Virus record (IMG/VR): IMGVR_UViG_3300011116_001170
Coordinates: 1 to 51,148 of that record
Strand: one strand, 5' to 3'
Source of the DNA: a virus
Lineage: Duplodnaviria > Caudoviricetes
Length of the DNA: 51,148 bases
Shown here: positions 6,347 through 51,148 of the stretch, one piece after another
How positions within the stretch are numbered: position 1 is the stretch's first letter
How the letters are laid out: each line of letters opens with the position of its first letter
Translations under genes and position numbers: made by a program
The notes under the pieces: model-generated
What the model saw: only the letters and a program-made list of their open reading frames with translations
Databases searched by the model: none
What the model was told of the DNA's origin: nothing

Positions 6347-7034
6347 CTCCGTGTCTATTTAAAAATTTTTCAGTAGAATCGGCGTTAGTTTGACGTCTTT
6401 TTTGGTCAGCAGTTAAAAACTGGCTTTGATTATTATTTTTAGGCTCAAAAACCCCCGTCCAGTTGCTTTTAATTGAATTTTCTAGTGATTGATTGGCATC
6501 CAAGCCTTTGTTGTGAAATTTTGTCAGCTCTTTGATTATCAACTCGATTGCTTTTTCTGTCGGCTTTGCTTTTTTTGATTTACGCATTTCTAAAAATGCA
6601 TTCCAAAGCGAAGCGTCAATAAAATTTGGGATTGTTATTTGTGATTTAGATTCTTCATTAAGATTATCATTTAGATTTACATTTACATTATTATTAGGGG
6701 TTACGCTAGGGGTTTTCTTGGGGTTAACTAGGGGTTTTCTTGGGGTTTTTTTACTTTTTGGACGACCTCCTTTAACCCCGTGTTTAGCACCTAGACAGCC
6801 ATTTTTAAATCTAGCCTTATTTGCTATCAATTGTGGTTCAATTAGCCTAAAAATTGTCTTTGGATAGCCAATTAAATCTATCAATTTTGTGTTAAGAGAA
6901 AACTCGCAAATTGCGCGATAAATTTGCAATTGATCAGCATCATCTAAATCACCAATCGCCTCAAAAAAAGAGCGATAAAAAATGAAGCTGTTGCGATTAT
7001 TTGTTGTGGTTGGTTTCATTTTTTGACATTCCAT
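6333..7034 (-). CDS. phage replication initiator (DUF6291-like N-terminus, DnaD-like C-terminus)
   Basis: NSFIFYRSFFEAI N-terminus, GGRPK, low-complexity linker, LWNAFLEMRK...SIKSNWTGVF C-terminus. Confidence 0.8.
   Translation of the reverse strand: MECQKMKPTTTNNRNSFIFYRSFFEAIGDLDDADQLQIYRAICEFSLNTKLIDLIGYPKTIFRLIEPQLIANKARFKNGCLGAKHGVKGGRPKSKKTPRKPLVNPKKTPSVTPNNNVNVNLNDNLNEESKSQITIPNFIDASLWNAFLEMRKSKKAKPTEKAIELIIKELTKFHNKGLDANQSLENSIKSNWTGVFEPKNNNQSQFLTADQKRRQTNADSTEKFLNRHGVENA
6695..6750. repeat. iteron-like repeats, probable replication origin
   Basis: Five T(A)GGGGTT units; CTAGGGGTTTTCTTGGGGTT occurs exactly at 6706-6725 and 6728-6747, next to an AT-rich tract inside the initiator gene. 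Confidence 0.65.
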
Positions 7035-7197
7035 TATTTAACATTGCACAAATATTATTCTTAAAGTGGTAAAGTATTTTCTTAACCGAGGTTTTTTGAT
7101 CGGCATTAGCTTGCATCGACTCAAGAATTGGCATTATATATCCAACAAGCCTCTTGGTTTCGTCATTGATTAAGCCTTCGATTTGATTTTGATTCAT
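6997..7197 (-). CDS. hypothetical protein
   Basis: 66-aa ORF directly upstream of the initiator. Confidence 0.6.
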   Translation of the reverse strand: MNQNQIEGLINDETKRLVGYIMPILESMQANADQKTSVKKILYHFKNNICAMLNNGMSKNETNHNK

Positions 7198-7261
7198 TGC
7201 ATGTTTGACATTAAATTAATTTCCACCACTCTCAATCTTTATTTCTAAAAGTCAAGAAAAA

Positions 7262-7500
7262 ATTGCCTTTTTACAGAAGACTAACTGACTAGAACACGAG
7301 CAGCTTTCTAGCCACGTAAAACATGAATAGAAAAGCAAAGAAATTGGCTTTCGGTGCGCGCGCACCTACTCGCCAAATTACAACTATGTTCTGGAAGTTG
7401 CCTCCGAGCTTGGTTGTGTAATGAGCTACCCAAGCTTCCCTCCTGTTTAACGACCGTCTAAGTCACGTCATTACCGAGTTATGCCTTCTTCTTTAGCCAG
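7262..7500 (-). ncRNA. structured ncRNA, scaffold-1 copy A
   Basis: Closing helix CTGGCTA/TAGTCAG, 3' hairpin GTCTT-CTGTAAA-AAGGC, internal AGUA/GAA loop-E motif; both ends shared with 47949-48141. Confidence 0.65.
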
Positions 7501-7543
7501 GCTGGCTTTCAATAGTGTCGAATTCGACACCTTTAGAATTTGG

Positions 7544-7617
7544 TGGAGCGAGGCAAGGGAATCGAACCCTTCGCTTTAGCTTGGAAGGCTAAGGTATTAC
7601 CACTATACGAGCCCCGC
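7544..7617 (-). tRNA. tRNA-Gly (UCC)
   Basis: GCGGGGC/GCCTCGC acceptor, TTAGC-CTTCCAA-GCTAA anticodon arm, GGTTCGATTCC T-arm, U73, encoded CCA with a second CCA at 7541-7543. Confidence 0.95.
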
Positions 7618-7620
7618 AAA

Positions 7621-7731
7621 AATATTCTCTAAAAACAACACCTCAAAAGTTATCAGCGATTCTTTTGCGACGCGGCTAGATGTTGTTGGACTTCATAACC
7701 TAACGCCGTGATGTTGCTTTTAGAAAATATT
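7621..7731 (-). ncRNA. long-stem ncRNA, scaffold-2 copy A
   Basis: 22-bp stem 7710-7731/7621-7642 whose three non-Watson-Crick pairs are all G-U on the - strand; outer arms identical to 47523-47718. Confidence 0.65.
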
Positions 7732-7853
7732 AAACGAAACCAGCGGGAGTTTGCTCGAGCCTCCCGCCGACCGACTAAGCCAGTTGCAACTAACTTAGCC
7801 CTAGCTCCATCACTTACGTTTAAAAGGAGAGGAATCGCTAGTCTATCTCTTAA

Positions 7854-8032
7854 GCTGATAATTTGAATAGTCCCTATCGTAGTGTGCCCTCTTTTTCTAT
7901 ACCACAAGCGAGGTGGCTCTATCTAAAAATTTATGCATGGTATTGATAAGCAATCGCTTTTAGACTTTCGGCTGTCGAAGCTTTTTCTAACGATAGCAAC
8001 GCGTTAAAAAATTCCGAATTCAAATTATCAAC
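7854..8032 (-). ncRNA. multi-branch structured RNA
   Basis: 15-bp closing stem GTTGATAATTTGAAT/ATTCAAATTATCAGC, inner CTATCGT/ACGATAG and ATACCAT/GTGGTAT helices, two TAGAAAAAG motifs. Confidence 0.55.
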
Positions 8033-8084
8033 GTTTTGAAACCCAAAAATCATGAAAAATCAGAGGAGTATCTTGGGCAATATT

Positions 8085-8163
8085 TTAAGCTGAAACGGTT
8101 GATTTTACAACATATCCCCGACTTTATGCCGATGGCTTTAATTAAGCTACTTTTTCAGCTTAA
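8085..8163 (-). ncRNA. degenerate tRNA-like cloverleaf
   Basis: TTAAGCTGAAA/TTTCAGCTTAA closing stem, TAGCTTAATTAAAGC D-arm-like, TCGGC-ATAAA-GTCGG arm, GTTG-TAAAAT-CAAC T-arm-like; no CCA. Confidence 0.45.
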
Positions 8164-8294
8164 TAAGTTGCCGCCCACTTTTCAATTCAGGCTCTGACGA
8201 ACCGACGGCAACTAATTAAAATGAAAGGGGCGGTGGATTAATGAAAAGAAACCACCGCCCAGCCGCATAAGGGCTACCCGAGGAAGGCTTTTTA

Positions 8295-8323
8295 ATTAAA
8301 AGAACTTAACTTTCCATTGTCAA
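8295..8323 (-). promoter_or_regulatory. sigma70-like promoter heading the RNA island
   Basis: TTGACA-N17-TTTAAT on the - strand immediately upstream of the first hairpins. Confidence 0.7.
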
Positions 8324-8334
8324 TAGTTTTTTTT

Positions 8335-8511
8335 TCATTTTTTTAGATTTAAAGATTGCGTAAAAGTGTTATAAATTATCTCGTAATATTCAGGTTCTAT
8401 TTCAGGTTCTATTTCAGGCTCAATCTTAGGTTCATAAAAAATAAAGAATGCAAAGGCTGCCAGCAAAACTGCGCATATCATTATTTGTAAAATATTATTA
8501 GCTAAATTCAT
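8335..8511 (-). CDS. small membrane protein with EPEI repeats (58 aa, not in track)
   Basis: MNLANNILQIMICAVLLAAFAFFIFYEPKIEPEIEPEIEPEY...; 12-bp tandem repeat; ATGA overlap with the upstream gene. Confidence 0.6.
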   Translation of the reverse strand: MNLANNILQIMICAVLLAAFAFFIFYEPKIEPEIEPEIEPEYYEIIYNTFTQSLNLKK

Positions 8512-8933
8512 TTTTCCACCTCGTTTTTTAAATTTTTTAAGTCTTTTTGATGTTCTTTAAAAGTTTTAAAAAGAAACAAATTTGGATCGGAAATATAATT
8601 GTCAAAATCTTTCTGCAATTCAAGATATCCGTTGCGCCCTGTTCTTTTTTCAAACTTTCTAATTTCGTAAATTTTAATTCTTAAAATTTCTTTTTCATCA
8701 TCATTTAAATGTTTTTTGCGATAATTGTAATCAACTTGTTCTTTCTTGATTCCAAGTTTTTTTAGAACTCTTTTCTTTATATCCTCGTTAAAACCTGGCG
8801 ATTTTAAGCCTAAATTTTGCAAGCTAAAACCATCCAAATAGTTTCCGATTTTATATCTACACGTTAAGCCTAGAGGTTTTATTTCGCGCTCTATGATTCT
8901 ATTGCAAAGCGTTTCTAATTCGTTATTTTCCAT
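8508..8933 (-). CDS. hypothetical protein
   Basis: ORF; ATG at 8933 (MENNELE) more plausible than the track start at 8990. Confidence 0.6.
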   Translation of the reverse strand: MENNELETLCNRIIEREIKPLGLTCRYKIGNYLDGFSLQNLGLKSPGFNEDIKKRVLKKLGIKKEQVDYNYRKKHLNDDEKEILRIKIYEIRKFEKRTGRNGYLELQKDFDNYISDPNLFLFKTFKEHQKDLKNLKNEVEK

Positions 8934-13255: not shown

Positions 13256-13330
13256 GCCGTAGTAGCACAACAGTAGTGCATCATTCTTGTAAAATGGAGG
13301 TTCTGGGTGCAAATCCTAGCTACGGCACCA
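13256..13330 (+). tRNA. tRNA-Thr (UGU)
   Basis: GCCGTAG/CTACGGC acceptor, TCATT-CTTGTAA-AATGG anticodon arm, ACCA end; non-canonical D- and T-loops. Confidence 0.85.
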
Positions 13331-45707: not shown

Positions 45708-46009
45708 TTAGTTTGTAATTTTTTCTTTAATTCTAATGGGCAGAAATTTATTTTAAATACCAGTTTATCGTTTTCAAATTTTATATCATAAATTTTTAGA
45801 ATAGGCGTAATCATCACGCCTCTTTGCCAAATACTATATTCCCAGTAATCTAAGAATCTTCTTTGGTGCATTTTAATTCCATGCCAGCGCAATTTTCCTT
45901 TTGTAATTTCACCTTTGATTTTTGCTATAAATACAGCGCATCTTATCAAATCAGATTTTAGCTCTTCTTGCATATTATGAATTTTATGAATGTCTTGTTT
46001 GTAGTCCAT
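45704..46009 (-). CDS. hypothetical protein
   Basis: 101-aa coupled ORF. Confidence 0.65.
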   Translation of the reverse strand: MDYKQDIHKIHNMQEELKSDLIRCAVFIAKIKGEITKGKLRWHGIKMHQRRFLDYWEYSIWQRGVMITPILKIYDIKFENDKLVFKINFCPLELKKKLQTK

Positions 46010-46566
46010 TATCTAATTTCCCCCCCGTTATCAATTAGTATCTGCAAATTTTTTCCTCTGTAATCGTCAACGTAATTTTTTTCTCCATCTTTATCGAGAC
46101 TAAAAACAACAAAATCTTTTTCGTCAATTGCGCCTTCTTGACAAACTTTAACTAGAGATTGAATCATTTCGCGCGAGTGAGTTGTAGCAAAAATTTGAAC
46201 ATCGTTTTCAATTGTTGCCGCAATAACATTAAGCCAAAAATCCTTCATAACGCTATGGTGCAAACCATTTTCAATTTCTTCAAATAAAAATATTTTTTCT
46301 TCTTTTTTAAAATAGTTCAAAACTAAATCGCGCGCTTGTGGCTTAAAACCAAGTTTTCTAAGGCTTCTATACTCCGAAACATCTTTGTAATATTCTTCAA
46401 AAATATCAGGAAAAATTACTTTGTTTTCATATTTTTTTTTTATGCTTTCAAGTATTGCGGTTTTTCCAGCTCCATTTTTACCAACCAGCAAATTAATGCG
46501 TTTGCAATCATTAATTTTTAGATCTTTAATGCTGTGATAATTTTGAATGTGAATGTCTTTAATCAT
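46009..46566 (-). CDS. miniature ABC/AAA_21-type ATPase, copy 1
   Basis: GKNGAGKT Walker A, FEEIENGLH Walker B/D-loop, TTHS H-loop; only about 55 aa between A and B. Confidence 0.85.
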   Translation of the reverse strand: MIKDIHIQNYHSIKDLKINDCKRINLLVGKNGAGKTAILESIKKKYENKVIFPDIFEEYYKDVSEYRSLRKLGFKPQARDLVLNYFKKEEKIFLFEEIENGLHHSVMKDFWLNVIAATIENDVQIFATTHSREMIQSLVKVCQEGAIDEKDFVVFSLDKDGEKNYVDDYRGKNLQILIDNGGEIR

Positions 46567-46718
46567 AAGCTTTTAGTTTTCTCATTAATTCTAATTTTTC
46601 TTTTTCAAAATCTGTTTCTAAAATTTGCTTCCACCCTTCATTTCGCTTTTTTACATCAAGCCGAGCAAGAGTAAGAACTTGTTTAACATTTTTCCCCTCA
46701 ACTTCGACTTGAGCATTG
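46499..46718. repeat. 220-bp direct repeat, copy 1
   Basis: Identical by eye to 47286-47505; spans a gene junction. Confidence 0.9.
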
Positions 46719-46792
46719 TTGTCAAAGTAATGGACCGTGATCTTGCGGTTAAGGCTGTCTTTGTAGTATTCGATTTTTGGATTTTTATTCAT
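46559..46792 (-). CDS. small partner protein
   Basis: 77 aa; C-terminal about 52 aa duplicated at 47346-47505. Confidence 0.7.
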   Translation of the reverse strand: MNKNPKIEYYKDSLNRKITVHYFDNNAQVEVEGKNVKQVLTLARLDVKKRNEGWKQILETDFEKEKLELMRKLKAYD

Positions 46793-47353
46793 TCATTTTT
46801 TCTCTATAAATTTACAAAATTGTTCCGAACTAAATTCTGTTATATTGTGTAAGCAGGGGTCACCATCACGCATATTTCTTCCTTCTTTAATAAGCTGATC
46901 AGTTGCCCACGATTCAAATTTCATTACACCATTTCCTTCTTCGTTTTTATGAAGCCGATAAACCCTAATTTCTTCTTGCTCAATAAGATTGGTTTCTTCC
47001 GCTGCTTTAACCAAAGCCTCCATCATCTCGTGAGAATGAGTTGTAGCAAAAATTTGAAAATTATTAGCTAACGCCATTTTAATAATGTAACGCCAAAAAT
47101 CCTTCATAACGCTATGATGCAAACCATTTTCAATTTCATCAAATAAAATAATTTTTGAATCTTGGTTTGTTTTAAAAGCTCTCCACGAAGAATAAAATGG
47201 CGCATATTCTTTGTGGTAAGATTGTTTTATAAATTCTAAAACTGTTGTTTTTCCAACTTCATTTTTCCCGACTAGTAAATTAATCCGTTTGCAATCATTA
47301 ATTTTTAGATCTTTAATGCTGTGATAATTTTGAATGTGAATGTCTTTAATCAT
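46793..47353 (-). CDS. miniature ABC/AAA_21-type ATPase, copy 2
   Basis: GKNEVGKT, FDEIENGLH, TTHS; only about 30 aa between Walker A and B. Confidence 0.85.
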   Translation of the reverse strand: MIKDIHIQNYHSIKDLKINDCKRINLLVGKNEVGKTTVLEFIKQSYHKEYAPFYSSWRAFKTNQDSKIILFDEIENGLHHSVMKDFWRYIIKMALANNFQIFATTHSHEMMEALVKAAEETNLIEQEEIRVYRLHKNEEGNGVMKFESWATDQLIKEGRNMRDGDPCLHNITEFSSEQFCKFIEKK

Positions 47354-47505
47354 AAGCTTTTAGTTTTCTCATTAATTCTAATTTTTCTTTTTCAAAATCT
47401 GTTTCTAAAATTTGCTTCCACCCTTCATTTCGCTTTTTTACATCAAGCCGAGCAAGAGTAAGAACTTGTTTAACATTTTTCCCCTCAACTTCGACTTGAG
47501 CATTG
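47286..47505. repeat. 220-bp direct repeat, copy 2
   Basis: Identical by eye to 46499-46718 (offset 787). Confidence 0.9.
47346..47505 (-). pseudogene. 5'-truncated copy of the small partner gene
   Basis: Same C-terminus as 46559-46792; the only start (TTG 47549) lies inside an RNA stem. Confidence 0.55.
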
Positions 47506-47522
47506 CCGTTAAAGTTTTTATT

Positions 47523-47718
47523 AATATTCTCTAAAAGCGGCACTGGCAAAGGACTTTCACCTTTGCATTTGCTTAGACAGCTTCACACTAGTATTATTGC
47601 CATCCACAAGAGTATTGCTTCTGTTTATCCTACTTTTTGCAGTTTTCGGATTGTGAGTCATCTTTCGAGCCTCTACATAGTGTCTTATTCCACCACAGTG
47701 CCGCCATTAGAAAATATT
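47523..47718 (-). ncRNA. tRNA-Leu-like RNA with about 110-nt insert, inside scaffold-2 copy B
   Basis: GCGGCACTG/CAGTGCCGC stem, TG-GTG-GAATAAGA-CAC D-arm-like, GCAAAGG-TGAAAGT-CCTTTGC T-arm-like, outer AATATTTTCTAA/TTAGAGAATATT. Confidence 0.65.
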
Positions 47719-47887: not shown

Positions 47888-48142
47888 AAAAACGAAGCCA
47901 GAACGCGCCTAAACGACGCAATAACAAATGTGTCCTGACTTCGTAGATTTGCCTTTTTACAGAAAGGCTAACTGGCTAATCTTGAACTTACGAAAGCGAT
48001 GATCGTAATTAGCTTGCTCGTATCAGAGGTTTTGCATTCAATATCACTAGCAAAACGTAACCGCTTGATGATTGAAGCCCTTTCGGGCAATTTAACTAGC
48101 TCAACTTGCGTCGTCTAATATTTCTACACTCTTCTTTAGCCG
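47888..48142 (-). ncRNA. pseudoknotted ncRNA, scaffold-1 copy B, with terminator-like 3' hairpin
   Basis: GGCTAA/TTAGCC, GCCC-GAAA-GGGC, GTTTTGC/GCAAAAC, TTACGA/TCGTAA, 13-bp hairpin plus U-tract, 12-nt long-range complementarity. Confidence 0.7.
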
Positions 48143-48152
48143 TGCCGATTGA

Positions 48153-50892: not shown

Positions 50893-51105
50893 TTAAATTT
50901 TAAATCCTTTAAAAAGACTTTTTAGCTCTTCTTTGTTTGGTTGCTCATCAAGAGATTTGCCAAGATGCCAATCAGTCCAATCTACACCTTTTGAACCGCT
51001 TACAACAATTTGAACAGTATCATCATCAGTAAGTTCAATTCTTAAATCGTCTTCGTCTTTCTTTGCTAATTTAATTATTTTAGTTAAATATTCTTCTAAG
51101 TTCAT
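50893..51105 (-). CDS. hypothetical protein
   Basis: 70-aa ORF following a copy of the exonuclease 3' end. Confidence 0.65.
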   Translation of the reverse strand: MNLEEYLTKIIKLAKKDEDDLRIELTDDDTVQIVVSGSKGVDWTDWHLGKSLDEQPNKEELKSLFKGFKI

Positions 51106-51148
51106 CTACTCCCCCTTAATTTTTGTTAATATCTCATCACACATTGTT
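51101..51148. repeat. imperfect copy of 228-275 (exonuclease 3' end)
   Basis: 46/48 identical by hand alignment. Confidence 0.9.

Follow-up and report, generated by a model that had tools for sequence, protein, structure and literature searches.

Two covarying RNA modules, a compact pseudoknot and a CAGUUA-hairpin, frame unrelated non-coding RNAs in phages

Bacterial and phage RNAs can carry stabilising structures at their 5' ends, such as the hairpin of the ompA leader. Phage clusters of transfer RNAs (tRNAs), like the tRNA region of T4, also hold small stable RNAs of unknown function. Among small folded RNAs, the preQ1-I riboswitch aptamer is an H-type pseudoknot with an A-rich third loop. 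Here we describe a system with likenesses to all three in the IMG/VR virus record IMGVR_UViG_3300011116_001170 (Duplodnaviria; Caudoviricetes), the whole of which, 51,148 base pairs (bp) with a completeness rated 100%, constitutes the window analysed. The system comprises two non-coding segments of the minus strand, cassette A (7507 to 7263) and cassette B (48150 to 47949), in which a 5' pseudoknot module and a 3' module, a hairpin preceded by CAGUUA, enclose an interior that we term the cargo. Both modules are covarying RNA structures that are portable, independent of each other and mark the boundaries of units in many phages. Whether they serve as the end-defining and end-protecting pieces of a phage small-RNA cassette system, with the locus studied here as one cassette of an array, is in our judgement evenly balanced.

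The 5' module resembles the ompA-type stabilisers in being a compact fold at the very 5' end, the pseudoknot starting at the predicted position +1 or +2 of the transcript in two related loci, L059 and L024 (such L-numbers are the labels of the related loci used in the comparison). Unlike them, it is a 25-nucleotide (nt) H-type pseudoknot whose A-rich loop is conserved, rather than a simple hairpin, and it is a portable module reused on unrelated RNAs and also within polycistronic arrays. With the preQ1-I aptamer it shares a short first stem, a second stem formed between the hairpin loop and the 3' tail, and an A-rich loop 3. However, zero nucleotides separate the 5' strand of stem 2 from the 3' strand of stem 1, so that there is no such ligand pocket, and an expression platform is lacking; the preQ1-I Rfam model likewise gave no match at E <= 10 in regions A and B. 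As in the T4 tRNA region, tRNAs and other structured RNAs are arranged head to tail in one transcription unit, but the units described here have dedicated covarying boundary modules and many of them are only partly or not at all tRNA-like. Neither module has a family in Rfam 15. Passages in the main text of a catalogue published in 2023 (PMC10690425), which gathers 8,495 candidate structured RNAs from IMG/VR, name no motif like these, and the supplementary tables of that catalogue may list overlapping candidates.

The 5' pseudoknot module

The two cassettes are made up of the following parts:

7483..7507, minus strand: 5' pseudoknot of cassette A (descriptor match; all pairs perfect)
7288..7482, minus strand: cargo A, a 195-nt lineage-specific interior with hairpins at 7376-7344 and 7436-7407
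7263..7287, minus strand: 3' module of cassette A, CAGUUA, hairpin and AA (exact-pattern scan and stem covariation)
48126..48150, minus strand: 5' pseudoknot of cassette B, AAUC-G-GCAC-GGCU-AAAGAAGA-GUGU
47975..48125, minus strand: cargo B, from a conserved family of structured RNAs that is unrelated to cargo A
47949..47974, minus strand: 3' module of cassette B, CAGUUAGCCUUUCUGUAAAAAGGCAA, with one extra U

Regions A and B each lie between minus-strand genes, and cassette A is 36 nt downstream of a minus-strand tRNA-Gly(UCC). As both the flanking genes and this tRNA are on the minus strand, we take this to be the sense of the RNA, in agreement with an initial annotation of the sequence that had proposed an RNA feature there. 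The same annotation had pointed to a shared 12-mer, TCTTCTTTAGCC, which indeed occurs at 7487-7498 and 48130-48141 and at no other site in the window. With at most one mismatch allowed, shuffled sequences gave a mean of 0.36 matches, and two matches were reached in 4 of 100 shuffles.

This 12-mer spans part of a 25-nt H-type pseudoknot with two 4-bp stems. Its plan comprises, in order, the 5' strand of stem 1 (4 nt), loop 1 (0-1 nt), the 5' strand of stem 2 (4 nt), the 3' strand of stem 1 (4 nt), loop 3 (AAAGAWGA) and the 3' strand of stem 2 (4 nt). In cassette A these elements are AGCC (7507-7504), A (7503), GCCU (7502-7499), GGCU (7498-7495), AAAGAAGA (7494-7487) and AGGC (7486-7483). The pseudoknot of cassette B has one A.C mismatch in stem 1 and one G.U pair in stem 2, and begins 2 nt past the stop codon of an open reading frame (ORF) for an SPFH-domain protein (Band_7 domain); in L010, too, no more than a few bases separate the pseudoknot from the stop codon upstream.

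The loop pattern AAAGAWNA occurs 932 times in 410 kilobases (kb) of the loci compared, and both 4-bp stems are perfect at 35 of these sites (17 distinct), against one in a slid control. In an alignment of 27 rows, 94.0% of the cells are paired, a share that is inflated by the choice of 25 of the rows with a pairing descriptor, which leaves the variety of pair types unaffected; shuffles gave 75.0 +/- 2.0%, with none of 500 as high, and slid partners 17-39%. Four rows with a loop 1 of zero length are out of register and count against the structure, and three further loci (L088, L090 and L091) were dropped as chance matches of the pattern. Changes on both sides are seen in seven of the eight pairs (all four in stem 1, three of four in stem 2), so that two interleaved helices, each with compensatory change, define the H-type pseudoknot. 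Stem 1 is found as ACUC/GGGU, ACUC/GAGU, CCUC/GAGG, ACCU/AGGU, AGCC/GGCU, AGUC/GGCU, AACC/GGUU, GCUA/UGGC and AGCU/AGCU, with AUCC/GGAU added by a later scan, and stem 2 as GCAC/GUGC, GCCU/AGGC, UGCC/GGCA, ACUC/GAGU and GCUC/GAGC. One pair of stem 1 is U.G in 11 of the 27 rows; on the other strand these would be C.A mismatches, and they therefore fit only an RNA read from this strand.

In L059 and L024 a predicted promoter, TTGACA-16-TATCAT (11 of 12 positions), ends 8 nt before the pseudoknot, which would therefore be the extreme 5' end of the transcript there; in L062 the same cargo directly follows a promoter without a pseudoknot. The pseudoknot of L076 is a hybrid, in which the stem 1 and 5' stem 2 strands are of one type and the 3' strand of stem 2 is of another. 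A k-turn or box C/D-like motif was considered for the 5' loop and rejected by eye, since its G.A positions do not fit.

The 3' CAGUUA-hairpin module

The initial annotation had also matched a stretch of about 30 nt at 7263-7291 with 47949-47978. The match holds, with 90% identity, one indel and an E-value of 5.5e-5, and a 16-mer, TTGCCTTTTTACAGAA, is found exactly twice in the window. The described hairpin of copy A is likewise borne out: its stem of 5 bp (7281-7277 with 7269-7265, one G.U) covaries and closes the loop CUGUAAA (7276-7270). For copy B the annotation had given a 6-nt loop, which the extra U does permit on a 6-bp stem, a 5-bp stem with an 8-nt loop being the other option. It had further held that the two C/U substitutions between the copies lie opposite G and preserve pairing; this is so for the one inside the hairpin stem, and the other has no supported pair.

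An exact-pattern scan with the 3' motif yielded 36 IMG/VR contigs, and a stricter version two. A relaxed scan, in which only CAGTTAG, the loop CTGTAAA, one closing C and AA were fixed and four stem positions were left free, yielded 40 contigs, 14 of them new, and in 13 of these 14 the stem is paired and the two U-A pairs are kept. The new stem types are GAGUU/AACUC (8 contigs), GGCUU/AAGUC (2) and GCUUU/AAAGC (1), in addition to one stem that has a wobble pair and another that has a mismatch. The 14th match, in L067, was left out of the alignment as a chance one, with no pairing, without the UU/AA pairs and in an unrelated context. Across 11 distinct variants 98.2% of the cells are paired, both variable pairs are doubly changed, and the covariation score was reached by one of 500 shuffles. 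In contrast to the stem, little or nothing changes in the loop (identical in 10 of the 11 variants), the CAGUUA flank or the trailing AA. Such constancy of loop and flank suggests that a putative factor recognises them specifically. A sigma-70 promoter was also considered for the 3' motif and rejected by eye, as the would-be -10 element is not conserved between contexts. A run of U follows the hairpin in A and is absent in B and most homologs, and promoter and terminator scans of regions A and B stayed at or below the level of shuffles. In L075 (10690-10861) about 170 nt contain three hairpin modules, of which two directly adjoin each other (CAGCUAGCC... and then GAGUUAGCC...).

The loop CUGUAAA equals that of a tRNA-Tyr anticodon arm, with U33, the GUA anticodon and A37 in tRNA numbering, and copy A along with 8 of the 11 variants has every feature of such an arm (5-bp stem, 7-nt loop, U33, G34 U35 A36, purine 37). 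In a narrowed form of the decoy idea of the initial annotation, the hairpin might mimic the anticodon arm of tRNA-Tyr and engage, as a putative decoy or as a substrate, an anticodon nuclease or a tRNA-directed enzyme of the host, making the cassettes countermeasures to host defence. The constancy of the loop in 10 of 11 variants while the stem covaries speaks for this, as does the location of the element in tRNA arrays, where none of 25 tRNAs called by ARAGORN is a tRNA-Tyr. However, unlike the tRNA-Tyr arm, the hairpin stands alone, with no D arm, T arm, acceptor stem or Rfam tRNA match, between an invariant CAGUUA on its 5' side and AA on its 3' side; the 5' flank is as invariant as the loop and has no counterpart in the tRNA arm. 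An extra base alters the loop or stem geometry in copy B, L019b and L062b, and the loop of L043b is CAGUAAA. Moreover, no enzyme and no linked defence or counter-defence gene supports such a role, and we regard it as improbable. The same doubt attaches to a wider proposal, in which freshwater phages, possibly of LD12/SAR11-type hosts, would carry a portable two-part chassis with a pseudoknot 'cap', an anticodon-arm-like 'tail' and swappable cargos, the tail recruiting or decoying a putative tRNA-directed enzyme or anticodon nuclease and the cassettes forming an RNA arsenal against host defence or for translation takeover; this, too, we consider improbable.

The main rival to the end-defining role arises from what lies downstream. 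After 22 of the 50 distinct hairpins an ORF of at least 40 amino acids starts with ATG within 70 nt, mostly 21-34 nt and at the most 65 nt off, a spacing equally possible for an element of the 5' untranslated region of that gene. The CAGUUA-hairpin would then be a leader element of whatever comes after it and not part of a small RNA, with the pseudoknot an unrelated 5' element; as variants, it could be a 5'-terminal stabiliser after cleavage near the CAG/UUA junction, a translational operator or a nut-like antitermination site. In keeping with this, hairpin and pseudoknot occur independently, and in a group of phages typified by L066 the hairpin lies between protein genes without any RNA array; a small ORF with a GGAG site begins 21-31 nt after it, and a conserved TAAATACT box lies upstream of it. 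On the other hand, in L037 and L076 a GC-rich terminator-like hairpin parts the 3' module from the leader of the next gene, and therefore the motif belongs with the upstream RNA there. Furthermore, the item that follows the hairpin is a pseudoknot unit in five loci and a tRNA in three others, and in window region B about 400 nt of further non-coding RNA come after it. We consider a leader role unlikely.

Unrelated cargos in a common frame

In related contigs the 3' motif usually closes arrays of tRNAs and of structured RNAs absent from Rfam; a scan of 15 related loci at the Rfam gathering thresholds gave 19 matches, all of them tRNA. The sequences upstream of the motif are of many unrelated types. 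A strict pseudoknot is present no more than 450 nt upstream of 21 of the 50 distinct hairpins; several of the remaining hairpins have imperfect or variant pseudoknots and others have none, while L089 and L092 contain pseudoknot units without a hairpin. Tandem units, with a hairpin followed after 4-8 nt by the next pseudoknot, are found in L020, L024, L029, L041 and L043, and a hairpin followed by a tRNA in L026, L042 and L077. In cassette A and at least seven other loci the hairpin is succeeded by a conserved 30-nt element and then by a gene.

The initial annotation had treated A and B as copies of one scaffold RNA. The notion of a scaffold survives in so far as a common frame holds differing interiors, but the copies do not: blastn of A against B aligns the 30-nt 3' motif only. 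Cargo A aligns to nothing but itself among 45 loci (blastn), and a metagenome search with the pattern of its second hairpin gave three chance matches in GC-rich coding DNA. Cargo B, in contrast, has homologs of 81-88% identity (blastn) in L038, L018, L015 and L024, and is also found in L059, L062 and L076; RNAalifold of five cargo B sequences gave eight pairs with compensatory change. In four runs with related phages, contigs extend over the 3' edge and 5' motif of cassette A and the ORF that flanks it, and leave 7299-7469 uncovered, and one such contig joins 7265 to 7483, skipping cargo A. Three further module-sized skips, 7549-7716, 7847-8083 and 7849-8142, affect the same array. From these gaps it follows that cargos come and go between close relatives. 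With unrelated interiors and such turnover, A and B are two unrelated, interchangeable cargos in the same two-module frame, and not copies of one RNA.

Other cargos recur as well. A family of about 140 nt lies between pseudoknot and hairpin in L012, L013, L014, L022, L031, L036, L037, L042 and L063; it ends in a T-arm-like GUGGGUUCAAGUCCCAU followed by CACAAUUG and is not called as a tRNA or transfer-messenger RNA. A second recurrent unit end, ACAGCUSGGAAAGACSGCAA, forms a small hairpin with a GAAAGA loop after CAG and precedes the next pseudoknot inside arrays (L013, L018, L019, L021, L038 and others).

The full model of the initial annotation had a closing helix between GGCUAA and UUAGCC, an internal pseudoknot and a possible loop-E decoy for nucleases of ribosomal RNA (rRNA), in addition to making A and B copies of one RNA. 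Several of its underlying sequence elements are real. On the minus strand, TTGGC-GAGTA-GGTGCGCGCGCACC-GAAA-GCCAA is present at 7376-7344, AGCTTGG/CCAAGCT at 7436-7430/7413-7407 and GTAATGA/TCATTAC at 7474-7468/7424-7418. The minimum free energy (MFE) fold of A holds both the AGUA/GAA and the AGCUUGG/CCAAGCU hairpins and pairs AGAAGGC.UAACU with the 3' motif; a GGCUAA/UUAGYC helix is formable in both window copies, and the MFE fold of B uses it. Nevertheless, comparison contradicts the closing helix: the 5' motif folds on its own as a pseudoknot, in which the GGCUAA in question is the 3' strand of stem 1 plus the start of loop 3. Those stem bases vary (GGGU, AGGU, GAGG, GGUU, UGGC and others) in step with the 4 nt directly before them, whereas the 3' UUAGCC is fixed, and hence only 3 of 21 two-module units have the GGCU needed for the helix. 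The internal pseudoknot of A is at chance level, with at least one such 7-nt pair in 71% and at least two in 45% of 1000 mononucleotide shuffles.

As for the decoy, the G-AGUA-GG...CC-GAA-A-G segment of 7376-7344 places AGUA opposite GAA in an internal loop that the MFE fold flanks with two helices; it matches a bulged-G (loop E) module at the sequence level only, and plausibly forms one. The ribosomal sarcin-ricin target of ribotoxins has a GAGA tetraloop. The hairpin loop here is GCGC, which weakens the version with an rRNA-nuclease decoy. A pattern scan of IMG/VR with the bulged-G hairpin found 12 other viral contigs that have the hairpin alone in common, with differing inner stems. Taken together, the comparative data contradict the full model, and we hold it to be highly improbable. 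The observations of the initial annotation are thus confirmed in part and its interpretation is partly supported.

The 12 contigs with the bulged-G frame GGC-GAGUA-GG...CC-GAAA-GCC are L046-L057. In L046, L048, L053, L055 and L056 the hairpin lies shortly upstream of an ORF that resembles, by eye only, a reverse transcriptase of diversity-generating retroelements; in L047, L049, L050, L054 and L057 it is part of a terminator-like hairpin in a T-run, and in L051 and L052 it has other contexts.

The element that follows the 3' module of cassette A is:

7227..7256, minus strand: conserved 30-nt element CTTGACTTTTAGAAATAAAGATTGAGAGTG, between the 3' module and a 66-amino-acid ORF (7197-6997), occurring once in the window

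It also follows the hairpin in L006, L010, L021, L030, L040, L045 and L019, and may be a promoter, an operator or a recombination boundary. In L006, L007 and L089 the 30-nt element (CTTGAYTYTTAGAAATARRGRTTGAGAGTG) is duplicated around an inserted structured segment, and judging from these flanking duplicates it is as if inserts enter at its boundary. Such duplicates, the module-sized presence or absence of segments between close relatives and the hybrid pseudoknot of L076 would fit a reading in which the conserved ends are chiefly recombination boundaries at the DNA level, with integron-like swapping of cassettes and structure secondary. As with integron cassettes and their attC sites, a conserved folded element delimits interchangeable cargos, which some relatives have and others lack; unlike them, the cargos are non-coding RNAs, the U.G pairs are specific to the RNA strand and no integrase is linked. 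The double covariation in two interleaved 4-bp stems, along with the frequent U.G pairs, instead speaks for selection on the RNA fold. Conserved sequence can be expected to recombine as a by-product, for which no dedicated site is needed, and no recombinase is linked. We therefore view a chiefly DNA-level role as distinctly improbable.

Genomic setting and proposed role

The window contains genes for the large terminase, portal, major head protein, tail sheath, tape measure and baseplate proteins, from which set it follows that this is a contractile-tailed, myovirus-type phage with a complete 51-kb genome. Its G+C content is about 34%, and near-identical or related DNA is held mainly by river, lake and other freshwater metagenomes. 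Cassette A ends a non-coding minus-strand stretch of about 1 kb (about 8290 to 7263) that contains several structured RNAs, the tRNA-Gly and then the cassette itself:

7544..7617, minus strand: tRNA-Gly(UCC), directly upstream of cassette A in the same array (ARAGORN; Rfam tRNA, 56.9 bits)

This is one of only two matches in a gathering-threshold Rfam scan of the window, both of them tRNAs, at 7547-7617 and 13256-13327. The tRNA model (RF00005) found no cloverleaf within 7262-7510 or 47949-48150. Scans of regions A and B at E <= 10 gave chance-level matches only, including RAGATH-27, pemK and Yfr20. RAGATH-27 (RF03100) was rejected as a candidate, its match being on the opposite strand (7263-7349) at 22.9 bits, against a gathering threshold of 76.1, with E = 2.6. 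With blastn against GenBank phages, region A matched in the tRNA-Gly only and region B not at all, and a scan of 6900-8600 for intrinsic terminators found none.

Further conserved structured RNAs occupy 7620-8290 on the minus strand, upstream of the tRNA-Gly. The segments 7716-7849 and 8142-8332 are common to relatives, and 7847-8142 is present in some and missing in others. A 9-bp GC hairpin with a U-rich tail is seen at about 8262-8222, and a TTGACA box at about 8320. Near region B, a tRNA-like element with a large insert (47537-47705, minus strand) has an acceptor-like helix GGCACUG...CAGUGCC and a T-arm-like hairpin CAAAGG-UGAAAGU-CCUUUG, with about 110 nt in between, and is not called by ARAGORN or Rfam. 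A similar element is found in L025 and a comparable build in L016, L023, L038 and L044, the L016 element scoring 40.5 bits as a 123-nt tRNA. A direct repeat of 294 nt with 93% identity (46435-46728 and 47222-47515) duplicates the 3' part of a 77-amino-acid ORF (46559-46792) into a 67-amino-acid ORF just downstream of the region-B RNAs, and the AAA-ATPase-like ORFs 46009-46566 and 46793-47353 also have repeats in common. A 48-nt repeat with 96% identity lies near both record ends (228-275 and 51101-51148); it may be the start of a paralogous gene or a remnant of the genome ends.

The hairpin motif was not found in the host genomes searched. In a genome scan, four of eight matches were true and lie on small contigs of metagenome-assembled genomes (MAGs) labelled Rickettsiales (two), Ca. 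Fonsibacter lacus and Peribacteria, and the other four were rejected as chance matches in coding DNA. Among 301 genomes of the order of the Fonsibacter MAG, only the MAG itself has the hairpin, on a 1.1-kb phage-like contig. This is a weak hint at a freshwater SAR11-type host. From the titles listed for the Fonsibacter, phage and tRNA literature, nothing on such RNAs was evident.

We propose that the primary transcript or the mature RNA would begin with the fold of the pseudoknot, which would shield it from decay that depends on the 5' end. The CAGUUA-hairpin would signal an end or a processing site, be recognised through its sequence by a factor of the host or phage, and separate the stable RNAs from the downstream sequence. 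The cargo would bear the biological activity and be exchanged between phages by recombination at the conserved boundaries. Several points weigh against this end-defining role. Among the sequencing runs recorded for the locus none is an RNA run, and RNA ends, processing and stability are all inferred. Fold energies are no better than those of shuffles (z-scores: A, -1.39; B, -0.19; opposite strand of A, -0.79), and a 5-bp hairpin with two U-A pairs would be a weak block to exonucleases. In the DNA fetched, no protein is common to the window and a second hairpin-bearing phage group. To these must be added the selection of most alignment rows by pairing, the spacing of many hairpins from an ORF start and the occurrence of the hairpin between protein genes in the L066-like group.

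The arrays show that the tRNA clusters of uncultivated aquatic phages contain far more than tRNAs. If the end-defining role is correct, these phages would possess a natural plug-in system for stable structured RNAs, in which a 25-nt pseudoknot and a 25-nt hairpin signal fit unrelated cargos; this would be a possible natural counterpart of the engineered tRNA scaffolds that stabilise recombinant RNA. It would also supply two compact, strongly covarying RNA motifs without an Rfam family that are open to structural and biochemical study, and searching between the modules would give a handle on many unrecognised non-coding RNAs of phages.

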